Source of the DNA: Candidatus Moraniibacteriota bacterium
GTDB lineage: Bacteria; Patescibacteriota; Minisyncoccia; Moranbacterales; UBA1568
Reading direction: 5' to 3'
NCBI GenBank assembly: GCA_016699425.1
Contig: CP064975.1
Span: 66,979-130,978 of the forward strand
Length of the DNA stretch: 64,000 nucleotides
A program made the translations under genes and the position numbers. This document shows positions 7,648 to 64,000 of this stretch, piece by piece. Positions within the stretch are counted from its first letter, which is position 1. Each line of letters starts with the position of its first letter. The notes under the pieces are model-generated. The model was not told where the DNA came from. It did not search any database and was given only the letters and a program-made list of their open reading frames with translations.

Positions 7648-7650
7648 CTG

Positions 7651-34266: not shown

Positions 34267-34782
34267 ATGACAGTCAGGAAAACAAATCTTAAAGGATCAA
34301 CGCTCGGTTTTTCTCTCATGCTGCTTTCGCTGCTCCTGTTTTCGGGGATCACGCTCCTCAGCGTTTCGGTTTTGGAGCGGAAAGCGAGTTTCGCGACGCA
34401 GAAGTCCGTCATCGCGTTTCAGGCGGCGGATAGCGGCGCGGAACGTGTCTTGAAACGCATCTATATCGATAATTCGCCGCTGATCGCTTCTGTGCCAATC
34501 AATGGTCCGATGCCGGATAGCACACTAAACACCCTGGCTGGCAACCTGTCTTCTGTATCTAGTGCGAGCTGTTCGAGCGGTGTGATCAGTGCAACCAATA
34601 CCAACAGTCCCGCATCGTCAAGTCCGAATTACACCTTTCAGGTCACGTTCTTTGATAGCACTGGTACGGCCATCACTTGTTCGGCGACCGACTGGCGCGA
34701 CAAAGTGGTCCGAATCCGATCGGAAGGATTCTTTCAACGGACTTCGCGGGCGATCGAAGTCGGAATCCGCGCCCGAAAATAA
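34267..34782 (+). CDS. type IV pilus minor pilin-like protein (PilX-N-like)
   Basis: N-terminus LKGSTLGFSLMLLSLLLFSGITLLSVSVLERKAS resembles the prepilin hydrophobic segment; the Glu at +5 is replaced. Confidence 0.45.
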   Translation: MTVRKTNLKGSTLGFSLMLLSLLLFSGITLLSVSVLERKASFATQKSVIAFQAADSGAERVLKRIYIDNSPLIASVPINGPMPDSTLNTLAGNLSSVSSASCSSGVISATNTNSPASSSPNYTFQVTFFDSTGTAITCSATDWRDKVVRIRSEGFFQRTSRAIEVGIRARK

Positions 34783-34938
34783 ACGAGCACTTTGCTTCGG
34801 ATAGATAAACAGGTTTCAATTGTATTTGTGCCGCGGGAGACCCTCCGCCGCTCTTCGAGCCTTGGACGGGCAGGGACTCTCCAACTTGAAACCGTCTGCT
34901 TGGAGTGAAAGTTTTTTGTGGGCGAGGAGGGACTTGAA

Positions 34939-35020
34939 CCCTCACAGTATTGCTACTATTGGATTTTGCCCTCCCAAGGCGGGTAAAAGTCCAACATTTC
35001 TTCGGTGCCGCGGGAGAGAC
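34939..35020 (-). tRNA. tRNA-like 3' fragment / degenerate type-II tRNA (T-arm + acceptor 3' strand intact, 5' half does not fold)
   Basis: The reverse complement reads ...AATAGTAGCAATACTGT GAGGG TTCAAGT CCCTC CTCGCCC A; no matching 5' acceptor strand or canonical anticodon arm could be found. Confidence 0.35.
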
Positions 35021-35025
35021 TCGAA

Positions 35026-35108
35026 CTCTCATGATATTGCTATCGCGGGATTTTGAGTCCCGTGTGTCTACCATTCCACCACCGCGGCATGTGTCTGGAG
35101 CATTGCCA
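35026..35108 (-). tRNA. tRNA-Leu (anticodon CAA), type II
   Basis: Hand fold: GCCGCGG-TG-GTGG AATGGTAGA CAC-A-CGGGA CTCAAAA TCCCG-CGATAGCAATATCATGA-GAGAG TTCGAGT CTCTC-CCGCGGC-A. The acceptor stem is perfect, the long variable arm has a GCAA loop, and CCA is not fully encoded. Confidence 0.8.
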
Positions 35109-35260
35109 GAAAAGGCTCTCTTTAGGGAAGAGTAGGCAATTGATAGAGTGTTGTCAATGGAATATAATGGAACCAACAACCCACGACTCACAACCTACAA
35201 TCGGAAAGGGTGAGGATTATTTTTTTGTTGGTTATCGGATATAAGTTGTAGGTTAATTTC

Positions 35261-36052
35261 ATGGCCAAAGTCATCGCGTTTGTGAACCAGAAAGGCGGGG
35301 TGGGGAAGACCACGACCACCATCAATGTCGCTCGCTATCTCGCGGAGGCGGGGAAGCGCGTCCTGTTGGTCGACCTCGATCCACAGGGCAATGCCTCGTC
35401 GGGCCTGGGGGTGCATATCCGGAATCTGGAAAAGAATCTGTACCATTCGATGATTATGGGGCTGCCCACCACTGAGATCATCCTCGATATCGGTATCCCG
35501 AATCTCTACCTCATCCCGGCGGCGCAGGACTTGGCAGGGGCTGAGATCGAGATGGTCCATATCGCTGAACGCGAGTTTCGTCTCTACCAGGTCATTCGTC
35601 AGATCCGTTCGGAGTTTGACTATATCCTCATCGACTCTCCGCCGTCCCTCGGTCTCCTCACGGTGAACGGGCTCGTCGCGAGTGATGGCGTCATCGTGCC
35701 GGTGCAGACCGAGTACTACGCGCTCGAAGGTTTGTCCCAACTTCTCGGCACGATCGAGCTCGTCCGGGAACACCTGCAGCCGAATCTGAAGATCTTCGGT
35801 GCGCTCCTCACCCTCTTCGACCGTCGGAATCGGCTGGCGCGACAGGTCGTCGAAGAAGTCAGGCGTCATTTTCCTGGTCCCGTTTTCGACTCGGTCATCC
35901 CGCGCTCCGTTCGTCTCGCCGAGGCGCCGAGTTTCGGCAAGTCCATCCTCGACTTCGATGCGTTTTCCAAAGGTGCCCGAGCCTACAAATCCGTCGCGCG
36001 TGAGATCATCGCCCGCGAAGAAGCCGAACACGACAGCGCTAAAGTGGTATAG
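35261..36052 (+). CDS. parA: chromosome partitioning ATPase ParA/Soj
   Basis: Deviant Walker A KGGVGKTTT. Confidence 0.9.
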   Translation: MAKVIAFVNQKGGVGKTTTTINVARYLAEAGKRVLLVDLDPQGNASSGLGVHIRNLEKNLYHSMIMGLPTTEIILDIGIPNLYLIPAAQDLAGAEIEMVHIAEREFRLYQVIRQIRSEFDYILIDSPPSLGLLTVNGLVASDGVIVPVQTEYYALEGLSQLLGTIELVREHLQPNLKIFGALLTLFDRRNRLARQVVEEVRRHFPGPVFDSVIPRSVRLAEAPSFGKSILDFDAFSKGARAYKSVAREIIAREEAEHDSAKVV

Positions 36053-36104
36053 TAGAGAGGATCACGTGTTTGATTATTGAGATTTTCATTTTACATTGAC
36101 CGAT

Positions 36105-37025
36105 ATGGCCCAGCAGTATGGACTCGGACGGGGATTGGCATCGCTCATCCCGCCGAAGCGAAATCCAGTATCTGACCCCGCTCAGCCAGTGGCGATTGGT
36201 GACATCCCGGTTTCGGCACTTCCACCGACCACTGTCTCACATCCCGATGTCCCGCTGACGCGAGAGGTCGCCATCGGTGATATCATCCCGAACCCGCATC
36301 AGCCCAGGCTGCATTTCGACGAAGCCAAACTCACCGAACTCGCTGACTCTATCAGGGAACACGGTGTCCTGCAGCCACTGGTCGTATCGGCCCTCGGTGA
36401 TGGGAAGTACGAGCTCATCGCGGGGGAACGACGGCTGCAGGCGGCCAAGCGAGTCGGCCTCGCCACGGTCCCGGTCGTCATCCGCGAGACGTCGGGTGAT
36501 CAGGAAAAGCTTGAGCTCGCCATCATCGAGAATATCCAGCGGCATGACCTGAACCCGATCGAAGAGGCGAAGGCCTACTTGCGGCTCACGGATGAATTTG
36601 GCCTGCATCAGGATGCCGTCGCGAAGAAAATGGGCAAGAGCCGACCGAATATCTCCAACACACTCCGGCTCTTGACTCTCCCGGTTGAAATTCAACGGGC
36701 CATTATCGAAGGCAAGATCAGTGAAGGTCATGCCAAGGCGCTCCTCTCCATCGACAATCCGGAAAAACAGCGCGCCCTCTTTGATCTCATCATCAAGGAA
36801 GAACTGACCGTCCGTGAGACTGAGGAAAAAGCCCGTGAAGTGTCGGTCCGTTCGCATCTGCGTACGGCGCGTGAGCCAGCCCCTGAGCTCGCTGCCAAAG
36901 AGGAGTGGCTGACCGAGCAGCTCGGGACGAAGGTGAAGATCCAGCCCAAGGGCAAGGGTGGCAAGATTACGATCGAATTCTACTCGAACGAAGAACTGAA
37001 TGGCATCCTCGGAAGACTCGCGTAG
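36105..37025 (+). CDS. parB: chromosome partitioning protein ParB/Spo0J
   Basis: ParB box LIAGERRLQAAKRVGL, an HTH region, and a C-terminal dimerization domain; the start was set to ATG at 36105. Confidence 0.9.
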   Translation: MAQQYGLGRGLASLIPPKRNPVSDPAQPVAIGDIPVSALPPTTVSHPDVPLTREVAIGDIIPNPHQPRLHFDEAKLTELADSIREHGVLQPLVVSALGDGKYELIAGERRLQAAKRVGLATVPVVIRETSGDQEKLELAIIENIQRHDLNPIEEAKAYLRLTDEFGLHQDAVAKKMGKSRPNISNTLRLLTLPVEIQRAIIEGKISEGHAKALLSIDNPEKQRALFDLIIKEELTVRETEEKAREVSVRSHLRTAREPAPELAAKEEWLTEQLGTKVKIQPKGKGGKITIEFYSNEELNGILGRLA

Positions 37026-37108: not shown

Positions 37109-38287
37109 ATGTCCTCTTACTCTCTTACCAAATCTCGAGCGTTCCAGTATGTTGGGATATTGTTGGCGCTGGCCACCCTCGCGGCGGGTTATTGGTATTT
37201 CTCCGTTCGCGCGAGTACGCTCAATAAGTCGCCCACCAGCTCCCTCACGAGTGGTCTGGTCGGTTACTGGACCTTCGATGGAGCGGACATCAGTGGCACT
37301 ACGGCGACGGACCGGAGCGGCAATGCAAACAATGGCACCCTCACCAATGGCCCGACGAAGACCGAAGGCAAACTTGGCCAGGCTTTGTCCTTTGATGGAG
37401 TGGATTCAACGGGTGGCTACATCGGATTACCCGGAGTGGTGATGACGAACACAAACACCATTTCGATGTGGGTCAGAAAAACAAGCAGTTATTATAAAGC
37501 ATTATTCACTCAGAATGTCAGTGTAGGAATAAACTGGTTAGGAGCAAGCGGAATCTGTGGTTGGGATGGCGATCGAATTAGTTTTACATATTCGGGTTCT
37601 GAACATTGCAGCACTGGGACGGTTGTAGCGAACGAATGGACACACATCGTGATTACGAATAACGCAGGGACGGCAACGTTCTACATCAACGGCGCCCAAA
37701 GTGGAACGACAACAAGCGCCCCAGGCTTAACAGCGAATTTTATTGCGTCGGATGATGGACTGTACAATAGATTTGACGGCTCCCTCGACGAAGTCCGCAT
37801 CTACAACCGCGCGCTGTCGGCCGGCGAAGTGAAGTCGCTCTATGACCTGGGTGCATCCGACAAAGTAAACACGAGTGTCTCCCAGCTCCAAGGCACTGGC
37901 CGATTGGACTCTGGCCTCGCTGGCTACTGGAAGCTGGACGAAAACACGGGCACGAGCGCCGGCGATGCCAGTACCAATGGCAATAGTGGCACTCTGACCA
38001 ACGGCCCCACCTGGACGACGGGACAGATCAAAACAGGGGTGGACTTTGACGGCACCGATGACTACATCACGGTCGCTGATCCGGCGAGCGGGGGTGCTCG
38101 ATGCGGTGGGGGACCAATACTACACGCTGTCGGGCTGGTTCAACCGCGACACCGCCACGACGACCGACACCATCCTCGCCAAGAGCAATGGGACAGCGGA
38201 CGCCATGGGCTATCTGGTCTATCTCGATGCCACGACGGACAAGCTCGTCTTCGCTACCCGCAGTGCGTTAGGAGACAATACCCTTGA
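37109..38287 (+). CDS. LamG/concanavalin-A-like lectin repeat surface protein, N-terminal part (frame breaks near 38090)
   Basis: TM anchor followed by LamG modules (LDEVRIYNRALSAGEV); sense is lost after DYITVADPAS at a G-run. Confidence 0.6.
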   Translation: MSSYSLTKSRAFQYVGILLALATLAAGYWYFSVRASTLNKSPTSSLTSGLVGYWTFDGADISGTTATDRSGNANNGTLTNGPTKTEGKLGQALSFDGVDSTGGYIGLPGVVMTNTNTISMWVRKTSSYYKALFTQNVSVGINWLGASGICGWDGDRISFTYSGSEHCSTGTVVANEWTHIVITNNAGTATFYINGAQSGTTTSAPGLTANFIASDDGLYNRFDGSLDEVRIYNRALSAGEVKSLYDLGASDKVNTSVSQLQGTGRLDSGLAGYWKLDENTGTSAGDASTNGNSGTLTNGPTWTTGQIKTGVDFDGTDDYITVADPASGGARCGGGPILHAVGLVQPRHRHDDRHHPRQEQWDSGRHGLSGLSRCHDGQARLRYPQCVRRQYP

Positions 38288-40586
38288 AACGACGAGTGCG
38301 TATACCGCGCCGGGTTGGCACCATTTCGCTATCATCTTCAATATCCCGCGGACGGGGGGCAACTTTGGTCAGATATATATCGATGGCGGTATTCAAAATG
38401 ACAATTCTATCGGTGGTGGGTATGCTGGCTCGATCGAGAGTACACGCGCTTTCGTCATCGGGGCGGAGAGCGATGGCGGCAATCCCTTCGACGGCAAGCT
38501 TGACGAAATCCGCCTGTACAATCGCGCCTTGTCCGCCGATGAAGTCGCCCAGCTGTACCGTCTCACCATGCCCACCGGTGTCGACACGAGTCTGAAGGGC
38601 TACTGGAGTTTCAATGGGAGTGATACCACCGGTACGACGGCCTATGATCGCAGCGGCGCGGGGAACAACGGGACGCTCACCAATGGCCCAACCATCGCGG
38701 AAGGCAAGCTCGGCCAGGCGCTGAACTTTGATGGAGTGGATGATAGTGTTGGAATCACCGGACTCTCGTTTCCCGACTGGCAGTCAGCGAGCGGATATAC
38801 CATATCATTGTGGGTGAAGGATTTCCCTGATGATCTCCAGGATATAGTCTTGTTTGAGATGTGGAATTCTGGAGATAATGATGAACGGATCCGTCTCGGA
38901 AGCAATAACTATCCTCCATACCAGCGGTTGCAAGTGATGGCCGGCCGGCAATATTCCCAGTCGGAGGCGTATATCCCGGAGTACGTATATCCATCTCTTG
39001 ACGACACCCGGATATGGCATCAATTAGTTGTGACGGCGAATAGTTCAAAGCTGGCGTTATTCCACAACGGAGTGGAAGTGGCAAGCGATACCGCGTTCAC
39101 GACTTTCGGATCGTTTTCATTTGATTCCATCCGTATCGGTGGCGGCGCGAGTGACTACAACGGCAACCCGAGCAACAGCTACGCCGGGGCCTTGGTCGAC
39201 GAAGTCCGTATTTACAACCGGACGCTCACGACGTCGGAAATTACCGCACTCTATAATCTGGGTGCATCCGACAAAGTAAACACGAGTGTCTCCCAGCTCC
39301 AAGGCACTGGCCGATTGGACTCTGGCCTCGCTGGCTACTGGAAGCTGGACGAAAACACGGGCACAAGCGCGGCTGATACCAGTACCAATGCGAGTACCGG
39401 GACCCTCACTAATGGCCCCACCTGGACCACGGGCCGCATCGGGAGCGCGGTGAACTTTGATGGGGTGAATGATGAAATAGGAGTAAGTGATGCGCCGGCT
39501 TTAGATTTCGGGGTCGGCGAAGCATTTTCGTATGCTGGGTGGTTCAATCTTAGTGCTGTGGACGGCAATGAACCACTTGTTATGAAGAGTACGAACGATG
39601 CCTCACAGGGGTATGGTCTTTTTATTCATACTACCGACCTATTCAATATAATGCTGAATGATGCAACGGATGATTGTAGTGATTATGTTGACCTAAATAC
39701 CACCCTCACCGGTGCCTGGCATCACTACGTGTGGTCCGTCGACACGAGCCACATCTCGCGCCTCTATGTTGATGGTACGCTACGCCTCACGACCGACTGT
39801 TCTGTCTCCGGTGATCTCTCTAATGCGGATGCCCTGTCTTTGGGGTGGATGTATGCCGGTACTTCCCAGTATTTTAGTGGCAAACAGGACGACGTTCGCC
39901 TCTACAACCGAGCGCTGTCCGCCGATGAAGTCGCTCAGCTGTACCGACTGACATCACCGACTGGCGTCGACACGAGTCTGAAGGGCTACTGGTCCTTCAA
40001 TGGGCCGGATGTCTCGGGCACGACCGCCTCTGACAGGAGCGGCGCGGGCAACAATGGCACCCTCACCAACGGCCCAACCATCACCGAAGGCAAACTCGGC
40101 CAGGCTTTGTCCTTTGACGGGACAAATGACACTGTTAGTATCTCTCCGACCGGCTTACCCACCGGATCACGTACTATCTCTGTGTGGGCAAAGGCGCCTC
40201 TGCTTGATGGTTCCTATCGTGGTGTTATCGGATATGGAAATCAGAATAATGGGGAGGCATTTGCAATCCAGATTAATTCCTCAAACGAATGGGTAATCAC
40301 TGGGTGGGGCGCTCCCAATGCTGTTAGTGGAGGTGCAGTGGTGCTGAATCAGTGGACTCATATCGTTGGTACGTATAGTGGCGGAAACGCGAGTATCTAT
40401 GTAAATGGTGTCCTTGTTGGTGGTCCGGCGGCCATTACTAGTGCTCCGAATCTTAACTATTCTGCCATTGGGTCTCGTCTGGATGGAGGAGGAGATTATT
40501 TCCCCGGTCAGATAGACGAAGTCCGCATCTACAATCGCGTGTTGTCGGATACCGAAGTGAAAGCGCTCTACAATAGTGGCCGCTAG
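38046..40586 (+). CDS. LamG/concanavalin-A-like lectin repeat surface protein, continuation (5 further LamG modules)
   Basis: Repeated (L/V)DE(I/V)R(I/L)YNRALSA(D/G)EV motifs; sense begins at GVLDAVGDQYYTLSGWFN, which continues the 37109 ORF in another frame. Confidence 0.8.
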   Translation: MTAPMTTSRSLIRRAGVLDAVGDQYYTLSGWFNRDTATTTDTILAKSNGTADAMGYLVYLDATTDKLVFATRSALGDNTLETTSAYTAPGWHHFAIIFNIPRTGGNFGQIYIDGGIQNDNSIGGGYAGSIESTRAFVIGAESDGGNPFDGKLDEIRLYNRALSADEVAQLYRLTMPTGVDTSLKGYWSFNGSDTTGTTAYDRSGAGNNGTLTNGPTIAEGKLGQALNFDGVDDSVGITGLSFPDWQSASGYTISLWVKDFPDDLQDIVLFEMWNSGDNDERIRLGSNNYPPYQRLQVMAGRQYSQSEAYIPEYVYPSLDDTRIWHQLVVTANSSKLALFHNGVEVASDTAFTTFGSFSFDSIRIGGGASDYNGNPSNSYAGALVDEVRIYNRTLTTSEITALYNLGASDKVNTSVSQLQGTGRLDSGLAGYWKLDENTGTSAADTSTNASTGTLTNGPTWTTGRIGSAVNFDGVNDEIGVSDAPALDFGVGEAFSYAGWFNLSAVDGNEPLVMKSTNDASQGYGLFIHTTDLFNIMLNDATDDCSDYVDLNTTLTGAWHHYVWSVDTSHISRLYVDGTLRLTTDCSVSGDLSNADALSLGWMYAGTSQYFSGKQDDVRLYNRALSADEVAQLYRLTSPTGVDTSLKGYWSFNGPDVSGTTASDRSGAGNNGTLTNGPTITEGKLGQALSFDGTNDTVSISPTGLPTGSRTISVWAKAPLLDGSYRGVIGYGNQNNGEAFAIQINSSNEWVITGWGAPNAVSGGAVVLNQWTHIVGTYSGGNASIYVNGVLVGGPAAITSAPNLNYSAIGSRLDGGGDYFPGQIDEVRIYNRVLSDTEVKALYNSGR

Positions 40587-40693: not shown

Positions 40694-40728
40694 GGGTTTG
40701 AGGCTTGAAAGAGGGGTTTTGCCAGAAA

Positions 40729-40758
40729 TTTTTGTTGGTGGTATGATAGTTTTGCTAT
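40729..40758 (+). promoter_or_regulatory. candidate sigma70-like promoter (TTGCCA-17 nt-TGgTATGAT)
   Basis: Extended -10 match directly upstream of the 40757 ORF. Confidence 0.35.
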
Positions 40759-41017
40759 GAAAAAGAAGCTGAAGAAAGTCACGACGATCGAAGACTTGGC
40801 GACCCTGATGCAGGGAGAGTTTTTGGTGATTCATGAGAAGATGGATTCAGGCTTCCAGCGTGTCGATGAGCGATTGGATGAGATGCAACAAGAGATGAGG
40901 GAGTTGAAAAGGGATGTTGAGGATCTTAAACTCCGGATGGTCGAAGTGGCGTATCGTTTCGAAGTGCGTGAGTTGGAGAAAAGAATTCACAAACTCGAAC
41001 TCCGTCTTGCAAAATAG
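40757..41017 (+). CDS. small coiled-coil protein (86 aa)
   Basis: Heptad-rich charged sequence; a terminator hairpin follows. Confidence 0.5.
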   Translation: MKKKLKKVTTIEDLATLMQGEFLVIHEKMDSGFQRVDERLDEMQQEMRELKRDVEDLKLRMVEVAYRFEVRELEKRIHKLELRLAK

Positions 41018-41071: not shown

Positions 41072-41221
41072 AGTCTTGTTTACGTTGTCTCGGTACGGTC
41101 CGAGTATGTGCGAAGATGCTCGGAAATATATGGGGAAAACAGTGTCGGGACGCGTGAAAGCGTGGTACAATAATACCGATATAGAGCCATGTCTTGACCA
41201 CGAACCGTCACTCCTTTGCGT

Positions 41222-42058
41222 ATGGCACAGCCGCCATCACCCCTCAATCCTTTTCTCGGCAGTCAGTCTCCCCCGATACCGGAAAAGCCAGTCGTCTCGG
41301 CCACGGTGAAAGCTCCCGCCGCGTCTTCGGCGGTGCCGAGAATCGTCCCTGCCTCAAGACCATCCGAACCGAGTCCAGCTGTGAGTGATGTCGCTACGCC
41401 GGCGAGTAAGTGGCGGCATCGGGTAGTGCGACGCAGTCTGATCACTCTCGTCCTCGTCGTGATCATCGCGGGGATCATGTACTGGTGGTTCCGCGATACC
41501 GGGAGTGCACCGATAGTCGATGAGCCAAAGTCGGTCACAGAAGTGAAGGAAGCGACACCGCCCGCACTCATACCAGAGCAAGGGACGCTCGCCCTGCCGG
41601 ATGACAATGCGAATTTCGAAAGTGAGAATTTCAAGGCGGGGGAGATCGTGATCGGAGGCGAGCTGCAGTTCCTTGTCGATGAGGATGAAGTCGGAGCACT
41701 CACGGTAGAGGATATCCGCGGCGAAGCCTTCACTGAGAAAAATAAGCAGGATGTGAAGCTGGTCGTGACTTGGACGACCAACAAGCTCGCTCAGGCATCA
41801 GTCCGCTACTCCAAGGGTATTGGTCAGACCGAGCGGGGAATTGACGAGGAAGACTACAGCTACAACCACAGCGTCATCATCTCGGGTCTCGATCCAGCTT
41901 CGACATATCTCTACACAATCGACGCGAGTGACCGCTATGGCAACCGGGTGAAAAGCGAGCCGCATGCAGTCTTCACCGGCGCGCGGACCGTATCGCTCTT
42001 TGACCTCATCGCGGGGGCGATCGGCGAGGTATTCGGTTGGGCAGTGACGTCTCGTTAG
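41222..42058 (+). CDS. membrane-anchored protein with C-terminal FN3/PAP-N-like beta-sandwich
   Basis: Pro/Ser-rich N-terminus, one TM (LITLVLVVIIAGIMYWWF), and a C-terminal SGLDPASTYLYTIDASDRYGN motif. Confidence 0.6.
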   Translation: MAQPPSPLNPFLGSQSPPIPEKPVVSATVKAPAASSAVPRIVPASRPSEPSPAVSDVATPASKWRHRVVRRSLITLVLVVIIAGIMYWWFRDTGSAPIVDEPKSVTEVKEATPPALIPEQGTLALPDDNANFESENFKAGEIVIGGELQFLVDEDEVGALTVEDIRGEAFTEKNKQDVKLVVTWTTNKLAQASVRYSKGIGQTERGIDEEDYSYNHSVIISGLDPASTYLYTIDASDRYGNRVKSEPHAVFTGARTVSLFDLIAGAIGEVFGWAVTSR

Positions 42059-58000: not shown

Positions 58001-58461
58001 CGCTGACCGAATTCTTCAACGCCTTCGATCTCGGCAATATGATCGCCAAGGATGAGCTCGGTAATGTTGATCTCCTCGGTGGGGCACTCCGTGCTAAGTC
58101 GCTGGCGACTGGCGGAATTACGATTGAAGTATCAGATGCAGAGGCACCAACTATCGGGACGGCGACGGTATTGCCTGTGGTGACGGATACGGATGGTGAT
58201 GGCAAAGATGATGAGACCGGTTCGGACGGACGAAGTATCGAGATCCGGACCAAGGCGATGATCCCGATGGTGAACGGCTCGCGTATCTTCACGAGTTTCA
58301 AAGGCAATCCGAATGCCTTTAGCTGGGTCGAAAAGGTGCGTGACGGGGACGGGGACTATGTTGGGTTCAAGATTCGGCTCTCGGAAAAGGTCGATGAGGC
58401 GGTAAAAGTTGACTGGTGGCTAATCGAACAAAAAGATACATTCTCCGCAGCGACACCATAG
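51904..58461 (+). CDS. giant repetitive surface protein, fragment 4 of 4 (C-terminal, includes non-repetitive C-terminal domain)
   Basis: Repeats continue to ~57.2 kb, followed by a unique ~400 aa C-terminal domain. Confidence 0.8.
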   Translation: MASTLGTSVDLTTEVTGTLPVGNGGTGAATLASNGVLYGNGTGIVQVTTAGTTGQFLVANGSGVPTFVSLSSDVTISNAGVATIAADAVALTTDTTGNYVANVANGNGITGGSAGSEGASLTLTLDLLDSADGTGSTSSNSGLEFQGASSNELALLQGCADNEILSWNNTTNVWQCATVSGVGGISGTGTSGHVAFWTGTSSLSSEAQLSVSRGGTGLDGSAAANGTLLIGNGTGYTLATLTDGTGISITEGAGTITVASTLGTSIAAGEVDADSLDFTEFQDTLDLDAALTLNQTTNTWAQTFTGTTTTGFAYTATSLTTGSALNLTTTNTATANTALTPVSFNLTNAQSTLANTNGVTGLAVNFTNNPSVAGNSEYAVRIQNQDTNNTTDNALSALLLLDNADTTTSGTTIVTDAIAITNSGGSNFTTFLNTPTLDISAAGAITGATGITSSGNITFSSLTANSFLYSGTGGLLTTTSAPTNGQLLIGSTGVAPVAAALTQGAGITVTNGAGSITIASTLGTSVDGSEITDNTVEEVDLEVTNAPTGGYVLTYDAGTGGFTWVDAGGLGNSKWTDSGTLTYLTQTSDDVAFGGSTTTSARFVFDVTTGNQILFEGTGADDANETTLVITNPTADRTITLPNLTGTVATIDGGQTFTSATWNGTAISAQYGGTGLDGSAAANGTLLIGNGSGYTLATLTDGTGITISEGAGSITIASTLGTSVDLASEVTGTLPVGNGGTGATTFTSNGVLYGNGTGAVQVTAAGTSAQLLVANGSGVPTFVTLSSDATISNAGVLTVAADAVALTTDTTGNYVANAQTSVLTGLTGGSAGSEGASLTLGLDYSQALTGDVGLAANAGVFGQSGFAFEGSTANTIETYLVISDPTTTDKTITFPDASGTVAVSGSGGLSVSALGDITCSTCVVSGGTLFTAAGTSGSNQTIAQGDTLTIAAGTGITTTGGATDTITIASTLGTSISAGEVDADSLDFTEFQDTLDLDAALTLNQTTNTWAQTFTGTTTTGFAYTADALTSGSALTLASAAAALTGSLETITLSGSNAANTGSLLDLQNTGTANANTSLLIQHNATGTGNLAFRVNDVASDTSPFVIDGTGNVGIGTAAPSLPLHVSRSTGGTYNKLAGLYVPDITTGQYVEAPIGRSETVRNRASWSFLYDGDGSANNAMGLLFYGDSSARITALASGNFGIGDTSPASLFTVGDGDAFQVNSTGAIVAATGIISSGTITFSGFTSNGGVLYTNGSGTLAQATAGTSTQVLLGGATPSFGTIGASSVTADSLDFTEFQDTLDLDANLTLNQTTNTWAQSFTGTTTTGFAYTADALTSGYAETLNVNGAAVLTTGGALNIDGPTGAATMNTTTGLLNISSTGAITNSTTGAGSGSLFQVTGNGAITPTLASISDTSVMTTTGKLLDLTADAATTTTGLLTMNAAGLTTGYAQNINVNGAAVLTSGGAINIVGPTGAAAQAAGALLKITTTGAVTGTAGTGNSLQVTSGTVTGTVASITDAAVMTTTGSLLTLTGNSATTTTGLLQVNANALTSGSAVNIASSSVAFTGSLESITLSGSNAANTGNLLLIADTGALNTTTSFKVTANGAATQVAALIENTGSGTSFRVNDVASDTDPFLIDASGQVGIGDATPNTILDVLSSGAADTIFTLANTNAGDYDPVVKFELTEGTPLFTLGIDDSDSDKFKIYSGDGLASGDEFVIDASGTTTIANLNLGATSFDENAGAVTWIDMPVTSAATSGTVESYTAAIDGTSFLTVYAQSNGSGGLDTAQSAVKSDVELDATVDGLATKVNAGACSDTTFTRDTNGTICVDSTNGRIYFRYGGAWHYSAQTAGFQIPSYETAPLSKLTSDAETELENALPFDTTNHPEYLTQRLQAGEFLIPYVDEYLEDGAVHGLYARFGDVKSKLFGEEQQQIADLSLQTTANITTLSELQTSVDEQLLLASTNLTAFATKDTEIDAKLAEHDTYFARDLARLDTLDTLTAQIALDQNTLAANLTSIQSDMVTLTAQVGTLTEFFNAFDLGNMIAKDELGNVDLLGGALRAKSLATGGITIEVSDAEAPTIGTATVLPVVTDTDGDGKDDETGSDGRSIEIRTKAMIPMVNGSRIFTSFKGNPNAFSWVEKVRDGDGDYVGFKIRLSEKVDEAVKVDWWLIEQKDTFSAATP

Positions 58462-58921: not shown

Positions 58922-61495
58922 ATGCAGGCATCAGAAAAGCCATCCTTTGCGCGTTTTGGGAGTCAGGCGAATTTTTCCAATAACCCTAACGAGAGACCGA
59001 ATGATGTCGTCCCCCGTGCCGATGCCGTGATCCGACCGGGCGCTGTCGGCGGACAAGTCACGAAGGCGCGCACTTCGAAAGCGTTCGACTTTATTATCAC
59101 CGCGGTGCTCGTGCTTCTCTTCTTCGGTGTACCGGTATTCTTCACAGGCCTGACATTCCAGGGCATCGCCTTCGAGAAACAAATCTTTTTCTACTTCTGT
59201 CTCCTCATCGGCCTCGTCGCGTGGGTGTCCAAGGGCGTCATGACTGGTGAGATGCGGGTTCGCCGTACCCCACTCGATATCCCGATCCTCCTGTTTTGGT
59301 TATTTGCGATCGTGGCGACGGTCTTTTCGGTTGACCGATGGCATAGTTTCTGGGGCTTCTTCGGTGATCCGTCCCGTGGTTTCATCAGCCTGACCGCGCT
59401 CGTCTTGGCCTATTTCTTCATCCTGAGTCACTTCACCGAAAGGCGGCGCAACCTCATGCTGACGGCATTTCTCGCCTCGGGTGTCTTGGTCATCGTCTGG
59501 AGCTTCCTCGTCGTTATGAAGATTCACTTCATTCCAGCGAGCTTTGAAGCGATCGCTCCGCTCTCCCTGATTGGTTCCATGTCGACTTTGACCCTCTACC
59601 TCGCCCTGCTCGTACCACTCATGGTGACGGCACTTTTCCTCCTCTTCCGTGACGGCTCAGGCGCCTCACGTGGGCTGCGGATTTCAGGTGCGGTGGTGCT
59701 TGGTGTGGCGCTCCTCTTGGACTTGTTCCTCCTCATCGCGCTCTACCCGTTTGTGACGTGGGCGGTGGTGCTCGGTGGACTCGGGTTCTTCCTGATCTAT
59801 ATCTTGGCTCAGATCGTCCGGCCGGTGCAGGAATTGACGTGGATGCCGATGGTCATCTTCGTCATCGTCCTTGCCTTCCTCATGATTGGGAGGAATAACC
59901 TGGCTCAGGCGACGCTCCCGGTTGAAGTGACACCGAATATGAAGCTTTCCTGGCAGGTGGTTCAGGAATCGCTCAGTGCCAATTTCCTCTCAGGTTCCGG
60001 TCTGGCGACCTATGGATATGACTTCTCGCTCTTCCGTCCGCAGGAATTCAATGGTAATGCACTCTACACCCTCCGGTTCTATCAAGGGACTGGCCTCGTC
60101 GCCGAAGCCCTTGCCACGATAGGTGTTGTCGGGACGATACTCATGCTCATCGTCTGGTTCTCGCTCCTCTCTATCGGTCTCTATCTCCTGACCATGGACA
60201 AGGCCAAGAATAAAATCGCCTCACTGGGCTTGTGGTCAGTCACGGTGATGCTCTTCGTCGCGGGTTTCGTCTCGCCGATAAATGCGACGATACTCATCCT
60301 CGGCGTCATCCTCTCGGCTCTTGCCCTCGCGACGCTCCTCCAAGAAAGTGGCTCAGAGGAACGCTATTGGGAATTGTCATTCCGTGCGACGCCCAAGTTC
60401 GCCCTCGCTCTCGCGTTCGTCTTCATGGTGGTCTCGGCGGGTGTGGCCTTCATCTTTGTCTTCATGGGTAAGGTCTTCCTCGCGGATGTCTCGGCGGGTG
60501 TGGCTACCCGACAGCCGGCCTCGATTGACGGTACGATTCCAAAGTACGTGCGAGCGATCCAGCTTTACCCGCAGGAGGGGCGGTACTATACGCGCATCGC
60601 ACAGGAATACATGGCCGTCGCCAATGCCGAAGGTGGTAAGAACGCTGATGAGCGCGATGTGAACCGGATCGCCTTCACGGTACGTGAGTCGGTCGCAGCC
60701 GGACTCCGAGCCAAGGACCTGATGCCAAACGACGTCCTAGCGACCGAAGCTCTCGGCCTCGTCTATGAAAACGCCAGTATCTTTGCGACTGATGCCCTGC
60801 CCAAAGCCGAAGAGATGTATACCCGAGCGCTCGAGCTTGAGCCTCAGAACCCACTCTTCGCGATCAAGCTCGGCCAGATCAAGCGCCTCTCGGCTGATGG
60901 GAAGCCGGATGGAGCTGAAAAGACGGCACTCTTGAACGAAGCGAAGGGGCTCTTTGAGCAGGCGATTGAGAAGAAAGCTGACCTCGCCATCGGTCACTAC
61001 AACCTCGCAGTTATCCACTCGCGATTGAAGGACTACGATGCAGCGATAAGCGCGACTTCGCAAGCTATCCGACTGGCGCCCACTAACCTCTCATTCCGGT
61101 ACAACCTCGGCCTCCTCTATCAGGAGCGCAATGCCGAAGGGGACCGAACTCAGGCGGAAAACCTCTACAAGCAGGTGCTCGATGCCAATGACCGGCTGAT
61201 CGACGTCCGTCTCTCGCTCGGCCTCCTCTATGAGGCCCAAAACAAGCGTGAAGCTGCGATGGCGGAATATGAGAAAATCCTCACACTTATTCCGGAAGAC
61301 GAGCGAACTTCGGCCAATGTGAAACAGACCCGTGCCCAGATCACTCAGGTGATCGACAACCTCCGCTCGGGCAAGGGCAATATTCCCGCTGGCAATAGTC
61401 TCGCTGAGCCCGGTCCGGTCACGCCGGCGACCGCTGCTCCGACCAACCCCGCCGCGAGCCAAGGTGAATCTCTCTTGAATGGCCCGACACCATAA
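58922..61495 (+). CDS. polytopic membrane protein (O-antigen ligase/Wzy-like) with C-terminal TPR repeats
   Basis: At least 10 TM helices, then TPR-like repeats (AIGHYNLAVIHSRLKDYDAAI..., FRYNLGLLYQERN...); the start was set to ATG at 58922. Confidence 0.6.
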   Translation: MQASEKPSFARFGSQANFSNNPNERPNDVVPRADAVIRPGAVGGQVTKARTSKAFDFIITAVLVLLFFGVPVFFTGLTFQGIAFEKQIFFYFCLLIGLVAWVSKGVMTGEMRVRRTPLDIPILLFWLFAIVATVFSVDRWHSFWGFFGDPSRGFISLTALVLAYFFILSHFTERRRNLMLTAFLASGVLVIVWSFLVVMKIHFIPASFEAIAPLSLIGSMSTLTLYLALLVPLMVTALFLLFRDGSGASRGLRISGAVVLGVALLLDLFLLIALYPFVTWAVVLGGLGFFLIYILAQIVRPVQELTWMPMVIFVIVLAFLMIGRNNLAQATLPVEVTPNMKLSWQVVQESLSANFLSGSGLATYGYDFSLFRPQEFNGNALYTLRFYQGTGLVAEALATIGVVGTILMLIVWFSLLSIGLYLLTMDKAKNKIASLGLWSVTVMLFVAGFVSPINATILILGVILSALALATLLQESGSEERYWELSFRATPKFALALAFVFMVVSAGVAFIFVFMGKVFLADVSAGVATRQPASIDGTIPKYVRAIQLYPQEGRYYTRIAQEYMAVANAEGGKNADERDVNRIAFTVRESVAAGLRAKDLMPNDVLATEALGLVYENASIFATDALPKAEEMYTRALELEPQNPLFAIKLGQIKRLSADGKPDGAEKTALLNEAKGLFEQAIEKKADLAIGHYNLAVIHSRLKDYDAAISATSQAIRLAPTNLSFRYNLGLLYQERNAEGDRTQAENLYKQVLDANDRLIDVRLSLGLLYEAQNKREAAMAEYEKILTLIPEDERTSANVKQTRAQITQVIDNLRSGKGNIPAGNSLAEPGPVTPATAAPTNPAASQGESLLNGPTP

Positions 61496-61940
61496 GGTGG
61501 GGTAAAGCGGAGAGGGGAGAATGAGGAAAATGCTATGCCCACCTCTAGCCTCTTTCGAAGAGCTTATCGTCTGGCAACGATCGATGGAACTTGCTGGGGC
61601 CGTTTATTTGGGTACAGAAGCACTGCCAAAATCGGAACAGTATGGTTTGATGAAGTCAGATGTGCCGTTCTGCAGTTTCTATATCCTTCCAATATTGCTG
61701 AAGGCTATATAAAGGAAGGGACTGGGTGAGTATGTCTACTTCTTGTCTGTCGCCGATGCTTCGGCAGCGGAACTTGAAACTCAAATACGCCTGGTCTGTG
61801 GTATTTATCCGGATATGAGTCTGAAGCGATCACTTGCCCTTCTGGATGAGGTACAGAAACTGTTAACAGTTATGATCAAAAAACTGAAAGCGAAATCAGC
61901 TCACCCCTAAACGTTCGCCGCTCTGCATTTTCCGACCAAT

Positions 61941-62255
61941 ATGTTCAGACCTATCATAGGCAGTATCATTTTCAGTAGCACTCTCTTTCCGAGGAGCGTC
62001 TTCGCCGGCGTGATCGATGAAGCCCAACCTCTGTCGGTTGGGTTGGCCAAGATCCTTGACTTTTTATTGTCAATCATCGGTGTAGTTGCTATCATTGGAT
62101 TAGTGATTGCGGGGCTCTTGTATTTCTTCGCGGCGGGTGACATGCGTCAGATCGCCCTCGCCAAGAAAGCGACGCTCGCGGCCATCACCGGCATCGTCAT
62201 CGCGCTCGGGGGCTATGTCCTCATCCGGACGATTGCGACGTTTGTCGCTGGTTGA
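61941..62255 (+). CDS. TrbC/VirB2-like pilin family protein (paralog 1)
   Basis: Signal peptide plus two TM helices separated by LLYFFAAGDMRQIALAKKA. Confidence 0.6.
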   Translation: MFRPIIGSIIFSSTLFPRSVFAGVIDEAQPLSVGLAKILDFLLSIIGVVAIIGLVIAGLLYFFAAGDMRQIALAKKATLAAITGIVIALGGYVLIRTIATFVAG

Positions 62256-62318
62256 ACACAAAAATAAAAAATCCTTGTCAGTCAGACTGACGAGAGAAAA
62301 GAAAGGGGGTGAGAGGTT

Positions 62319-62699
62319 ATGCAAAAATTCAAAAAATTGGCTATCGGTGCGGTGAACGGTCTCGTGCTGCTCGCCCCAGCCACAGCGTTAGCGCTGACAA
62401 ATGGTAGCTGGGCTGATCGGGGGACGACGAACTATCAGTCATCCGGACTGCCGACAGGAACGATTTACCAGATTATCTCGTCAACCCTGTCCTGGCTCCT
62501 GGCCATCCTCGGTTTCATCGCGGTCATCGGTTTCGTGATATCGGGCATTCTCTATCTCACCGCTGCTGGCAACGAGACACAGATCGAGAAGGCGAAGAGC
62601 GCCATGACGTACTCCATCATTGGCGTCATCGTCGCCCTCATGGGCTACGTGATCATCCAAGCTGTCAACGCTTGGCTCGGGACATCAGCGAACTTCTAG
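62319..62699 (+). CDS. TrbC/VirB2-like pilin family protein (paralog 2)
   Basis: GGGGGTGAG RBS; signal peptide ending AxA; ILYLTAAGNETQIEKAKSAMTYSIIGVIVALMGYVIIQAVNAWL. Confidence 0.7.
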   Translation: MQKFKKLAIGAVNGLVLLAPATALALTNGSWADRGTTNYQSSGLPTGTIYQIISSTLSWLLAILGFIAVIGFVISGILYLTAAGNETQIEKAKSAMTYSIIGVIVALMGYVIIQAVNAWLGTSANF

Positions 62700-62835
62700 T
62701 GTTCTTTTCGATCGAAAAGAGAAAGGCAATCCCGCCAGAGCGGGGTTGTTTTCTTTTCATCCGGACTGGGGGTGTACAGACGATGCTCATGTAGTGGTAT
62801 ACTAGAAGGGAGGCTAAATAAGCTAACCGTATTCG

Positions 62836-63207
62836 GTGAGTATGTTGCACAAAAAACTGGTTTTTATTGTACTCGGGGCGGCCATCACGTTTCTTCCGAA
62901 CATCGTCACAGCGACGGGTTGGATAGCAGGACAAACCAATGTCGCGAATTCCAATCTTCCTGTTTCGAGTGTGTACGGCATCATCTCCAATACTCTGTCC
63001 TGGCTTCTCGCCGTTCTTGGTTTCATCGCGGTCATGGGCTTTGTTCTTTCAGGAATCCAATACCTCTTGGCGGCGGGGGATGAAGGTATGGCTGAGCGGG
63101 CGAAAAATGCTATGAAGTACTCCATTATCGGCGTCATCGTCGCTCTCGGTGGGTATGTGGCTATTTTTGCCATCAATAACTGGCTCAACGCCGGAACAAA
63201 TTTCTAA
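62836..63207 (+). CDS. TrbC/VirB2-like pilin family protein (paralog 3)
   Basis: IQYLLAAGDEGMAERAKNAMKYSIIGVIVALGGYVAIFAINNWL; the start may be the ATG at 62842. Confidence 0.7.
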   Translation: MSMLHKKLVFIVLGAAITFLPNIVTATGWIAGQTNVANSNLPVSSVYGIISNTLSWLLAVLGFIAVMGFVLSGIQYLLAAGDEGMAERAKNAMKYSIIGVIVALGGYVAIFAINNWLNAGTNF

Positions 63208-63282
63208 GAGCGTGGTTTCAGGATTTTTCTGACGGGTGCGTAACATAAATACAAAAATCAGCGTATGTCGGTATCTGTGAGT

Positions 63283-63669
63283 ATGAAAAAAATTCTTCCC
63301 GCTTTTGTGGTTGCGGTCTTTCTTCTGGTGACGTGGATTCAACCAGTGGCAGCGACTGGCTGTCCCACTGGGTATGCTATGACGGCTGGAGTATGTTTTC
63401 CAACTGGTACCGGTCTCTCTAGTCAGCCATTGGCGACTATCATCATGGGAGTGATGAACTGGATGCTCGCCGTCCTGGGCTTTATCGCCGTCCTGGGATT
63501 TGTCATCTCGGGGATGCAGTACCTGTTATCAGCCGGGGATGAAGGAATGGTCGAGACCGCCAAACGCAACATGAAATACTCTATCATCGGTGTCGTCGTC
63601 GCCCTCTCGGGCCGTGTCCTCATCATGGCGATCAATAATTTGCTGAACGCCAGCACGACACCATTTTAA
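63283..63669 (+). CDS. TrbC/VirB2-like pilin family protein (paralog 4)
   Basis: MQYLLSAGDEGMVETAKRNMKYSIIGVVVALSGRVLIMAINNLL; the start was trimmed to MKKILPAFVV. Confidence 0.7.
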   Translation: MKKILPAFVVAVFLLVTWIQPVAATGCPTGYAMTAGVCFPTGTGLSSQPLATIIMGVMNWMLAVLGFIAVLGFVISGMQYLLSAGDEGMVETAKRNMKYSIIGVVVALSGRVLIMAINNLLNASTTPF

Positions 63670-63693
63670 TCCCCAAGGCCGATTATCTTTCGT

Positions 63694-64000
63694 ATGAAAA
63701 AAGGACTTCTGCTGCCAGTACTCGGATTCTTTCTCTGCTTCAGTTTCCTTGGCCTGCTCTCCACCGAAACAGTATCAGCCCAGACCTGTGTCGGAACTGG
63801 TTTGAGCTGTGTACCGATCGGATCGTGTACAGGTACTACCAACTCGTCACTTACTTGTGCCGGTTCGAATCTTTGTTGCCAAGCAACGGGGACAGGCGTC
63901 GGTGGTCCGACTGGCGGGACGGGGACAGGTGTCGGCGGTCCGACTGGTGGGACCATCTCCGTGAGTATTTCCAACCCACTCTCGTACAATACGGTGAACG
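63694..64000 (+). CDS. secreted Cys-rich, Gly/Thr-rich protein (3' end beyond window)
   Basis: Begins ATG MKKGLLLPVLGFFLCFSFLGLLSTETVSA (signal peptide), then CVGTGLSCVPIGSCTG...CAGSNLCC; the ORF runs open to the window end and the competing antisense ORF is ignored. Confidence 0.5.
   Translation, partial: MKKGLLLPVLGFFLCFSFLGLLSTETVSAQTCVGTGLSCVPIGSCTGTTNSSLTCAGSNLCCQATGTGVGGPTGGTGTGVGGPTGGTISVSISNPLSYNTVN

Follow-up and report, generated by a model that had tools for sequence, protein, structure and literature searches.

The window analysed here is a 64-kb stretch of DNA from Candidatus Moranbacteria, ultra-small bacteria of the CPR/Patescibacteria. ORF, tRNA and domain searches bear out the gene inventory and order given from 34.3 kb onwards in a first-pass annotation, and hydrophobic segments and domains agree with its description of this region as rich in envelope and surface proteins: all the genes listed for the region except those for ParAB and an 86-aa protein encode an N-terminal hydrophobic segment. 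The genes are indeed co-directional, as had been stated, but this does not mark out the region, as all genes in the window, including 34 kb of housekeeping genes, lie on the + strand. tRNA-Leu lies on the − strand. The features are:

26538–28853, + strand: T4SS_pilin and fn3 fusion, 771 aa (PF18895, 5e-7; PF00041, 2e-9; hydrophobic segments)
34267–34782, + strand: membrane protein of 171 aa with a weakly PilX_N-like N terminus (PF14341, E 0.005)
34829–34978, − strand: two partial copies of the tRNA-Leu 3′ end, just 3′ of the tRNA gene (13-mer repeat, minus-strand reading)
35004–35088, − strand: tRNA-Leu(CAA) (ARAGORN; Rfam, 58.8 bits)
35261–36052, + strand: parA (full-length Pfam match)
36096–37025, + strand: parB (full-length Pfam match)
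37109–40586, + strand: N-terminally anchored LamG protein with five Laminin_G_3 domains (domain search)
40757–41017, + strand: coiled-coil protein of 86 aa without a hydrophobic segment (ORF and domain searches)
41216–42058, + strand: FN3-like protein of 280 aa with a Pro-rich N terminus, a single TM segment and an FN3-like domain at the C terminus (Pfam)
42232–58461, + strand: giant repetitive fibre rich in Thr, Gly, Ser and Ala (ORFs, repeats, PHROG and motif search); ORFs as sequenced at 42232–44643, 44577–51098, 51146–51856 and 51904–58461 (803, 2173, 236 and 2185 aa)
58922–61495 (alternative start 58841), + strand: WaaL-like/TPR membrane protein of 857 aa with about 13 TM segments and a C-terminal TPR domain (fold match)
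61521–61910, + strand: four-helix-bundle pseudogene (23S_rRNA_IVP/Avd-like) with three frame changes
61941–62255, 62319–62699, 62836–63207 and 63265–63669, + strand: four VirB2-type pilin genes in tandem (PF18895)
63694–64000, + strand: start of an apparent fifth pilin-family gene that leaves the window (by-eye comparison with a relative)

Surface proteins are also encoded to the left of the tRNA, including a DUF11 protein at 1495, a DUF4349 protein at 25488 and the pilin–FN3 fusion, whose reported presence about 6 kb upstream is confirmed. A custom-built pilin HMM matches this fusion at 2e-19, and its gene sits between those for the DUF4349 protein and LeuRS, outside the proposed region. The 171-aa product, called minor-pilin-like in the annotation, is a membrane protein with a PilX_N-like N terminus, but the match is weak (17.2 bits against a Pfam cut-off of 25.5) and an NCBIfam search gave no match; its gene has a conserved counterpart between FolD and tRNA-Leu only where the relative's ParB is at least 72% identical. 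The chromosome-partition genes parAB are members of the conserved backbone: tRNA-Leu lies upstream of parA at the same position in all 28 relatives tested, including distant ones without the fibre, and tRNA-Leu–parAB is present even where the fibre is missing. ParB is 95% identical to that of the Moraniibacteriota MAG JBATNG010000037.

Three genes separate parB from the fibre. The LamG gene comprises two ORFs, split by a +1 frameshift in the G5 tract at 38090–38094; with one G fewer in this tract they form a single frame of 1,158 aa. Relatives differ in whether they have the gene, in how many copies and where: it is missing in the closest relative (L001), occurs elsewhere in 0–2 copies and occupies other positions in L032, L044, L086 and L162. 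The 86-aa coiled-coil gene follows a promoter-like site at 40719–40747, and its product has tblastn matches only in L001 and L003. Domain matches of the FN3-like protein are weak (Pur_ac_phosph_N, 5e-6; fn3, 0.009), as are its matches to FN3 structures in the PDB. In 33 of 33 relatives with an FN3-like gene, this gene immediately precedes that of the fibre; the protein is a constant partner of the fibre and the two genes travel together.

The fibre has an anchor at its N terminus. A shaft of repeat modules follows, among them tandem copies of 759, 758 and 758 nt, and the protein closes with a coiled coil (about 90 aa) and a beta domain at the C terminus. Its ends are conserved (48% identity at the N terminus and 62% at the C terminus) and its middle is variable, with a C terminus that is mosaic relative to L169; intact ORFs in relatives range from 2,168 aa (L161) to more than 3,023 aa. 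Several features recall those phage tail fibres and tailspikes that have an intramolecular chaperone (Peptidase_S74, Peptidase_G2, K1-lyase_C) at the C terminus. The repeats have matches in the PHROG tail-fibre family phrog_31660 (5e-14 at best), the C-terminal module of coiled coil and terminal beta domain is homologous to that of P0138, a carrier of Peptidase_S74 and K1-lyase_C, and the protein carries the phage tail-fibre C-terminal motif GRIYFRYGGAWHY. In five phage contigs this motif ends a protein encoded three ORFs downstream of one that we read, from its protein sequence, as tape-measure-like. The structure model of the fibre C terminus is poor (pLDDT 56.8), with no more than marginal matches to viral folds. 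Unlike the phage proteins, the fibre in the window has no recognisable S74 domain, is chromosomal and stands in conserved synteny with no phage genes nearby.

The length of about 5,400 aa first given for the fibre holds once the gene is repaired, but as sequenced it is four ORFs in three frames, and 5,409 aa are reached only after four single-base repairs, at C5 (44571–75), A3 (44636–38), CC (51085) and CC (51843). As sequenced, the product would be only the 803-aa anchored N-terminal fragment. LamG and fibre together hold five frameshifts in about 20 kb, all in short homopolymers. It is quite possible, if short of probable, that assembly or polishing produced these breaks as artefacts, and perhaps also the number of 759-nt repeat copies, and that the organism has an intact fibre and LamG protein: indels confined to homopolymers are typical of long-read error, the breaks cluster in genes with internal repeats, and single-base repairs give full-length ORFs that have conserved ends and run free of further stop codons for 5,409 (fibre) and 1,158 (LamG) codons, which also argues against long neutral decay. 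Relatives point the same way, as the fibre gene is intact in L161/L021, L022, L026 and L044 and fragmented in L006 and L037, whose contig names suggest long-read assemblies. That the large surface genes are instead decaying pseudogenes, with real frameshifts and adhesins no longer made, strikes us as rather unlikely, although part of the evidence favours it. Two neighbouring 758-nt repeat copies, distinguishable at five other sites, share one CCC-to-CC change, which is lacking in a third copy of identical context. A single mutation spread by duplication accounts for this better than random or context-driven error, but polishing fails in near-identical repeats and may copy one error into both. 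The LamG break lies just outside the best-matching internal repeat of that gene, and the non-repetitive four-helix-bundle gene has three frameshifts of its own, the sole resolved junction of which is not in a homopolymer, whereas a scan of housekeeping genes found no truncated or split domain match.

Downstream of the fibre, the protein first described as a Wzy/TPR membrane protein is confirmed as a multi-TM protein with a TPR domain, and its membrane domain has the WaaL (O-antigen ligase) fold, so that a glycan-handling enzyme adjoins the pilins. Its nearest known kind is the WaaL/Wzy_C superfamily, including the protein O-oligosaccharyltransferases PglL and PilO (structure 7TPJ), from which it differs by its low identity (13%, with no Pfam Wzy_C match), by an extra TM segment and a TPR domain of about 280 aa, and by a host without LPS. 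The intervening four-helix-bundle gene, whose stitched product matches PF05635 at 2.9e-26, is missing at the corresponding position in L081, L082 and L084. The four VirB2-like pilins are likewise substantiated: they match PF18895 (T4SS_pilin) at 1.6e-7 to 5e-13, share 37–54% pairwise identity, and each has a signal segment and two TM segments. The Cys-rich secreted protein noted after them does have a signal peptide and a Cys-rich region, followed by a Gly/Thr/Pro-rich linker, but by eye it appears to be the N terminus of a fifth pilin-family gene: a gene of a relative (L081:15248–16057) encodes a similar Cys-rich N terminus followed by two T4SS_pilin units, although BLASTP at E<=1e-3 gave no link between the two. 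Pilin arrays of 4–8 genes occur in relatives, downstream of the WaaL-like gene only where WaaL-like identity is at least 68%; where it is 60% or less, the custom pilin HMM found no pilins, and thioredoxin or rRNA-like sequence stands there instead. Domain searches found no pilus-assembly ATPase and no T4P or T4SS core or assembly genes in the window, and no T4SS or T4P assembly genes, including virB4, virB6 and virB3, lie within 10 kb of the relatives' arrays.

We compared about 170 related loci, of which 80, anchored on ParB, establish the taxon and the synteny of the backbone. The backbone runs LeuRS, RNase T-like, UppP, FolD, tRNA-Leu, parA and parB, and resumes with the WaaL-like/TPR gene, after which closer relatives have the pilin array and then, beyond two unknown genes, NusA. 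With 10-kb locus flanks, parB and the WaaL-like gene are both visible in four genomes only; the distance between them is about 0.1 kb in L107 and L031, 8.8 kb in L161, 21.9 kb in the window and 51 kb in L006/L081, which are the same contig. The closest relatives keep the order apart from LamG (parB, the 86-aa gene where present, FN3 and fibre in L001/L002; fibre, WaaL-like/TPR and pilins in L084/L169), and these genes are thus inherited together at the species level. In L031 and L107, which have neither fibre nor FN3 partner, parB abuts the WaaL-like gene, and in L081, L082, L170 and L171 (WaaL-like 81–86% identical) a teichoic-acid/glycan cluster rather than the fibre lies directly upstream of it. 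Across loci this neighbour is variously the fibre C terminus, the FN3 protein, ParB, LamG, or a TagF/IspD/glycosyltransferase cluster; in L162, where it is LamG, an IS200-type transposase accompanies it. Cell-surface genes set between conserved flanks are typical of flexible or hypervariable genomic regions such as O-antigen loci and 'metagenomic islands'. The interval resembles such regions in its conserved anchors (parB and the WaaL-like gene) and variable interior of large surface proteins, glycan genes and one transposase, a likeness to be read with both anchors seen together in only the four genomes.

We therefore think it likely that the region is a set of separate surface-protein modules on a conserved chromosome stretch and not a single inherited island. 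The first-pass annotation had proposed one attachment island beginning at tRNA-Leu, and its own test of co-conservation as a block, run on the relatives, largely showed independent inheritance; synteny of tRNA-Leu–parAB with the upstream housekeeping genes also runs straight across the supposed left boundary. Dense, co-directional surface genes, the order kept in the two closest relatives, the WaaL-fold enzyme next to the pilins and the consecutive parB, FN3, fibre and WaaL-like genes of L161 do speak for one co-inherited, co-regulated island that builds and decorates a single surface filament for host contact. Such an island nevertheless seems improbable: its modules vary independently among relatives, filament assembly genes are missing both here and near the relatives' pilin arrays, co-directionality holds for the whole window, parA, the 86-aa gene and the fibre gene each have a promoter-like site of their own upstream, and parAB, in the middle, belongs to the backbone. 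Still less credible, to the point of being very improbable, is an origin of the region as a prophage remnant or horizontally acquired island with tRNA-Leu as its integration site. The tRNA-Leu 3′ fragments (at about 34978–34919 and 34840–34829) are probably footprints of past integration and would record use of this site, and the fibre has phage-tail-fibre-like modules and a GC content of 0.59–0.63 against 0.48–0.58 in the rest of the window. However, the tRNA 3′ end points to the left, as do both fragments, whereas parAB and the fibre lie to the right; the window yielded no integrase, phage structural genes or distal att repeat; every relative retains the synteny of tRNA–parAB with the housekeeping genes around it; and the high GC is consistent with the Gly/Ala/Thr-rich composition of the fibre.

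The modular region has partial counterparts among described systems. The MAT (mosaic adhesive trimer) fibres of Bdellovibrio bacteriovorus reportedly resemble phage tail fibres, with mosaic, exchangeable ends. MAT proteins are chimeric fibres that recognise a broad host range (Nat Microbiol 2024, PMC10769870), and by description they are like the fibre here in being encoded by the cell, in their case a bacterium living on other bacteria; the present fibre, as predicted from its genes, is far longer (2,168–5,409 aa), N-terminally anchored in a probable monoderm and always accompanied by its FN3-like membrane partner. Pam pili of Saccharimonadia and Microgenomatia, built from Ig-like pilins by donor-strand exchange with chaperone-usher-like partners (bioRxiv 10.64898/2026.03.03.709456), are likewise CPR-specific surface filaments thought to serve host contact, but nothing matched here points to Pam pilins. 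VirB2-like (PF18895/TrbC) arrays in CPR hold 2–11 genes each in one survey (Microb Genom 2025, PMC12102498), the text of which has no occurrence of Moranbacteria, and in Ca. Southlakia epibionticum essential pilins lie in a T4SS cluster (Cell 2023, PMC10633639). The present array shares with these its small PF18895 proteins with signal peptide and two TM segments in tandem, divergent paralogues, and differs in having no virB4, virB6 or virB3 at hand and in its link to a WaaL-fold/TPR gene, which the passages of PMC12102498 and PMC10633639 drawn on here do not mention. As such arrays were already published, the claim that the system is undescribed is weakened; the gene set is a partly new combination of known kinds.

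In our working model, the functional steps of which are all drawn from domains, the parB–WaaL-like interval would be a variable slot that gathers large envelope proteins, filled here by the five-domain LamG protein, the 86-aa coiled-coil protein and the module of FN3-like protein and giant fibre. The fibre would cross the membrane through Sec and stay attached by the hydrophobic segment at its N terminus, with a shaft of phage-tail-fibre-like modules whose length may shift by tandem duplication (2,168 aa in L161 and 5,409 aa here) and a tip of conserved coiled coil and beta domain that may serve trimerisation or distal binding. The FN3-like membrane protein may be a dedicated partner for anchoring or assembling the fibre, and the LamG protein a lectin-type surface protein that is independent and exchangeable. 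The WaaL-fold enzyme is predicted to transfer an undecaprenyl-linked glycan outside the membrane to an acceptor picked via its TPR domain; candidates for this acceptor are a glycopolymer of the envelope and the pilins or fibre encoded next to the enzyme. The VirB2-type pilins would rely on a T4SS encoded elsewhere in the genome. Overall, a conserved backbone with a variable surface slot, together with this working model, is the account of the locus that we favour as probably correct.

Annotation of the window recovers every gene named in the first-pass annotation from 34.3 kb onward, in the same sequence of genes. The preceding 34 kb is mostly housekeeping, with a few envelope proteins interspersed.

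Features of the window, in order
First 34 kb, plus strand: housekeeping genes (SLT transglycosylase, RecO, TGT, ProRS, M16 peptidase, MetRS, TatD, ATP synthase operon, LeuRS, RNase T-like, UppP, FolD)
First 34 kb, plus strand: envelope proteins (DUF11 protein, DUF4349 protein, T4SS_pilin+fn3 fusion at 26538)
From 34.3 kb, plus strand: weakly PilX_N-like membrane protein
35004-35088, minus strand: tRNA-Leu(CAA)
Next, plus strand: ParA and ParB
Next, plus strand: protein with five Laminin_G_3 domains (LamG)
Next, plus strand: 86-aa coiled-coil protein
41216-42058, plus strand: TM and FN3-like protein (FN3 protein)
42232-58461, plus strand: long repetitive gene rich in Thr/Gly/Ser/Ala (fibre)
58922-61495, plus strand: multi-TM and TPR protein (WaaL-like/TPR gene)
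61941-63669, plus strand: four PF18895 pilins
To the window end, plus strand: Cys-rich ORF, truncated there

N-terminal hydrophobic segments are present on all proteins listed from 34.3 kb except ParAB and the 86-aa protein. The co-directionality cited for these genes is real but extends over the whole window, including the 34 kb of housekeeping genes: all sizeable genes lie on the plus strand, and tRNA-Leu(CAA) is the sole minus-strand feature. This tRNA is also the sole match in an Rfam scan. A terminator scan gave a signal no higher than background, and promoter-like sites precede parA, the 86-aa gene and the fibre, a pattern that would fit several transcription units. Among the housekeeping genes, an ORF6N/Rha-like gene of the phage regulator type (22378-22962) lies between the gamma and beta genes of the ATP synthase operon, and in LeuRS (29046-31910) the editing domain is followed by an inserted NUDIX hydrolase domain (aa 387-510). 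Among related loci (L numbers), this insert recurs in L002 (79% identical) and L017 (52%), is weaker in L026, L036, L037, L042, L046 and L048, and is missing in the closest relative, L001, and in L003 and L005-L009.

The first-pass annotation placed the left boundary of a single ~30-kb cell-surface island at tRNA-Leu. All 28 loci tested have the tRNA upstream of parA, among them distant loci without the fibre, and the group as a whole retains the order LeuRS - RNase T-like - UppP - FolD - (PilX-like) - tRNA-Leu - ParA - ParB, so the proposed boundary is ordinary backbone. Immediately beyond the 3′ end of the tRNA gene (34829-34978, minus strand) are two incomplete copies of its 3′ part: one runs from the anticodon loop through the variable arm and T arm to the acceptor end, and the other is the last 12-13 nt only. 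Both resemble traces left by past integration and excision events. An island integrated at the tRNA is nevertheless rejected. The minus-strand orientation of the tRNA makes its 3′ end point left, away from parAB; all repeats of this end fall on that side, no more than 180 nt away, and no direct repeat was found farther right. A Pfam scan covering all genes between 34 and 64 kb detected no integrase, and presence/absence variation begins after parB, module by module and not as a unit beside the tRNA. Prophage origin is likewise rejected because phage structural genes and an integrase are both lacking.

To the right of parB, the modules vary separately. A ParB search of species-representative genomes returned 80 loci, the best from Candidatus Moraniibacteriota MAGs at 95, 90 and 85% identity; we compared relatives by tblastn and ORF labelling, with most contigs ending inside the fibre, and for the right half examined gene neighbourhoods and 77 metagenome loci. 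An exact-sequence query with the window ParA gave no match. The FN3 protein is encoded downstream of ParB in 33 relatives and the fibre is directly next in all 33, with ParB identity of ~58% or more in every FN3-bearing relative but L054 (55%). Many relatives carry a minus-strand gene of 365-389 aa between ParB and the FN3 gene, which in L161, the one case with a Pfam record, encodes a ManC-like nucleotidyl-transferase. LamG occupies this interval in 7 of the 33 and is not there in L001; it appears as one to three ORFs in other relatives and at a different position in L032 and L044. Directly upstream of the WaaL-like gene lies the fibre C-terminus in L084 (90% identity to the window WaaL-like protein), L169 (87%; the same genome as L002), L161, L090, L093, L095, L097 and others, the FN3 protein in L099, and ParB in L031 and L107. 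Upstream neighbours also include LamG (L086, L162) and a TagF-like/IspD/glycosyltransferase/epimerase cluster (L081, L082, L170 and L171; 81-86%). In L162 (68%), an IS200-type (Y1_Tnp) transposase gene (4116-4685) separates LamG from the WaaL-like/TPR gene. The distance from ParB to the TPR gene is 51 kb in L006 and L081, which belong to one 228-kb contig, 21.9 kb in the window, 8.8 kb in L161 and ~0.1 kb in L107. These varied neighbours and distances indicate that the modules are inherited separately. Co-conservation as a block, the check proposed for a single island, was not observed: the full gene order is common to the closest relatives only, and LamG is missing even there. Big surface proteins with LamG domains and giant adhesins built of repeats are both common. 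On this comparison the region amounts to several modules of known kinds that vary independently along a conserved backbone, with its two largest genes interrupted in this assembly, and not to one undescribed combined system.

The fibre that accompanies the FN3 protein contains phage-tail-fibre-like modules, as judged from profile and sequence matches. Four of five fibre segments match phrog_31660, a tail fibre PHROG (6e-7 to 5e-14), and the last ~250 aa, a coiled coil and beta domain, is homologous to the end of P0138, a protein bearing Peptidase_S74 and K1-lyase_C. The C-terminal 649 aa of the window fibre gave no Pfam match to Peptidase_S74 or Peptidase_G2, which occur only in more distant proteins having the last ~250 aa in common. 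The fibre motif GRIYFRYGGAWHY also terminates a phage-contig protein encoded three ORFs past a tape-measure-like protein, an assignment made from reading the sequence. In phage contig L163 (and also L164-L167), positions 7017-8162 encode a 381-aa protein ending ...DGTDGRIYFRYGGAWHYVNKTL, and this end motif is 51-55% identical to the fibre C-terminal region over ~60 aa. A single-sequence viral scan with the fibre returned just a short shared motif. The AF2 monomer model of the fibre C-terminus is poor (pLDDT 56.8), so its marginal viral fold matches in BFVD were discounted, and PDB sequence searches with the fibre N-terminus, fibre C-terminus and FN3 protein gave nothing significant. Homologues of the fibre N-terminus in the protein database are all Moranbacteria or other CPR fragments, mostly partial and unnamed or ‘hypothetical’. 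Compared with the intact 2,168-aa fibre of L161, the N-terminus (~620 aa) is 48% identical, the C-terminus (~650 aa) 62% identical and the middle variable; compared with L169, the C-terminus is a mosaic.

Described at first as a single gene for a ~5,400-aa protein, the fibre as sequenced is divided among three reading frames into four ORFs (803, 2173, 236 and 2185 aa). When these were aligned with sister repeats that are intact, every break mapped to a one-base change in a short homopolymer: C4 to C5 at 44571-75, A2 to A3 at 44636-38, and CCC to CC at 51085 and 51843, where the 759/758/758-nt tandem copies meet; four repairs yield a 5,409-aa ORF with no further stop. The adjacent 758-nt copies (50327-51842) have the identical CCC-to-CC frameshift yet differ at five other positions, and the preceding 759-nt copy is intact despite identical sequence context. 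Removal of one G from G5 at 38090-94 similarly fuses both LamG ORFs, with one and four Laminin_G_3 domains (E 2e-23 and 1e-93), into 1,158 aa. A third interrupted gene, 23S_rRNA_IVP (four-helix-bundle, Avd-like; 61521-61910), lies after the TPR gene and before the first pilin, has three frame changes within ~100 nt, and when stitched matches PF05635 at 2.9e-26; it is not at the corresponding position in L081, L082 or L084. A link to a DGR, considered because this remnant is Avd-like, was dropped, as Pfam scans of the window genes found no reverse-transcriptase domain.

The fibre and LamG breaks may be sequencing errors, since homopolymer indels within repeats are typical of long reads, but the identical change in two otherwise differing repeat copies, with a third copy of the same context intact, argues against this explanation. 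They may instead be real mutations, and the four-helix-bundle pseudogene, which is not repetitive, speaks for at least some of the decay being genuine. Domain matches seen in the housekeeping genes scanned were neither truncated nor split. Fibre genes are also split into several frames in L037 (13000-20963) and L006 (12041-20918), both long-read assemblies as their contig names suggest, and are intact in L161/L021, L022, L026 and L044. Taken as sequenced, the fibre would yield just an 803-aa N-terminal fragment. Given these interruptions in the assembly, the giant genes should be annotated or modelled as intact only after a read check.

The multi-TM/TPR protein belongs to a family of 678 homologues of ~855 aa, and the source names among the 120 best are all Moranbacteria or a generic TPR label. 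Its true start is probably Met28 at 58922. Pfam Wzy_C (PF04932) was not detected in the window protein (E<=0.01) or in 17 family members (E<=10), and a search of the membrane domain against PDB profiles returned WaaL 7tpg at a non-significant E of 1.1. In its predicted fold, the protein resembles WaaL, with multiple membrane helices and a large outer loop, and R114, R115, D138, R139, H141, R152, R372 and R385 are invariant in the family. Glycan-synthesis genes are present near the WaaL-like gene in L081, L082, L170 and L171 and absent in the window, L084, L169 and L161.

In every relative with at least 68% identity, the WaaL-like gene is succeeded by 4-8 pilin genes in tandem. At 60% or less, the gene is followed by thioredoxin or rRNA-like sequence, and no pilins were found after it even with a purpose-built pilin HMM. 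The four window pilins (104-134 aa) score 31.7-49.4 bits against PF18895 (cut-off 26.6) and each have three hydrophobic segments, a signal segment and two helices. VirB4, VirB6, VirB3, VirD4 and type IV pilus ATPase genes were detected neither in the 64-kb window nor within 10 kb of the pilin arrays of L081, L082, L162, L169 and L170. The array in relatives is followed by two minus-strand genes and then NusA, pyrophosphatase and trigger factor. In the same five loci these two genes encode proteins of ~450-530 aa and 305-345 aa; both are conserved, have no Pfam match and lie beyond the window end. By visual comparison, the Cys-rich ORF resembles the N-terminal part of a fifth gene of the pilin family: in L081:15248-16057, two pilin units come after a similar Cys-rich stretch at the N-terminus, a link that BLASTP did not confirm (E<=1e-3). 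At the other end, the PilX_N-like protein falls below the Pfam threshold (17.2 bits, cut-off 25.5), the canonical G/FxxxE motif is not visible by eye in MTVRKTNLKGSTLGFSLMLL, and no T4P genes lie nearby. Together with the FN3 protein, fibre and Cys-rich ORF, it gave only weak matches or none in Pfam and NCBIfam.

From the gene content, synteny pattern, WaaL fold and tail-fibre-like modules shown by the analysis, we propose for the fibre the role of a tail-fibre-like adhesin, anchored at its N-terminus and probably trimeric, whose length would shift through tandem duplication of ~253-aa modules, with the FN3-like membrane protein as its dedicated partner and LamG as an exchangeable lectin-type protein. 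The WaaL-fold/TPR enzyme would move undecaprenyl-linked glycan onto an envelope polymer, or onto pilins or the fibre, and the pilins would rely on a T4SS encoded elsewhere. A more ambitious and, in our judgement, unlikely reading treats the whole parB-WaaL interval as a hypervariable slot dedicated to host-contact proteins in Moranbacteria. Its core would be an undescribed two-gene module of FN3-like membrane partner and phage-tail-fibre-like giant adhesin, with adhesin reach tuned by duplication of the ~253-aa modules and expression perhaps switched by homopolymer frameshifts, and the WaaL-fold/TPR enzyme would act as a protein glycan-transferase decorating VirB2-type pilins or the fibre. If true, these modules would together set the host range of an ultra-small episymbiont.

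Parts of the region have published counterparts. PMC12102498 describes 441 CPR tandem arrays of 2-11 divergent VirB2-like pilin genes, PMC10633639 reports pilins as essential in the Southlakia T4SS cluster, and PMC10769870 reports that cell-encoded chimeric fibres serve prey recognition in Bdellovibrio. Pam pili, recently found in CPR (10.64898/2026.03.03.709456), are probably a different system from the window locus. The published CPR pilin arrays weaken the claim that the combined system is undescribed; for a Moranbacteria-restricted FN3 partner and tail-fibre-like giant protein beside parAB, and for the link of a WaaL-fold/TPR gene with a pilin array, we found no published description in the literature text available. 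Host recognition and attachment by ultra-small CPR bacteria are largely unknown outside Saccharibacteria. Replacing ‘one island’ with independent modules on a conserved backbone is equally useful as a negative result, and the locus provides a concrete lineage-wide Moranbacteria candidate, an FN3-like partner and tail-fibre-like giant protein found in 33 relatives, and ties CPR pilin arrays to a WaaL-fold enzyme.
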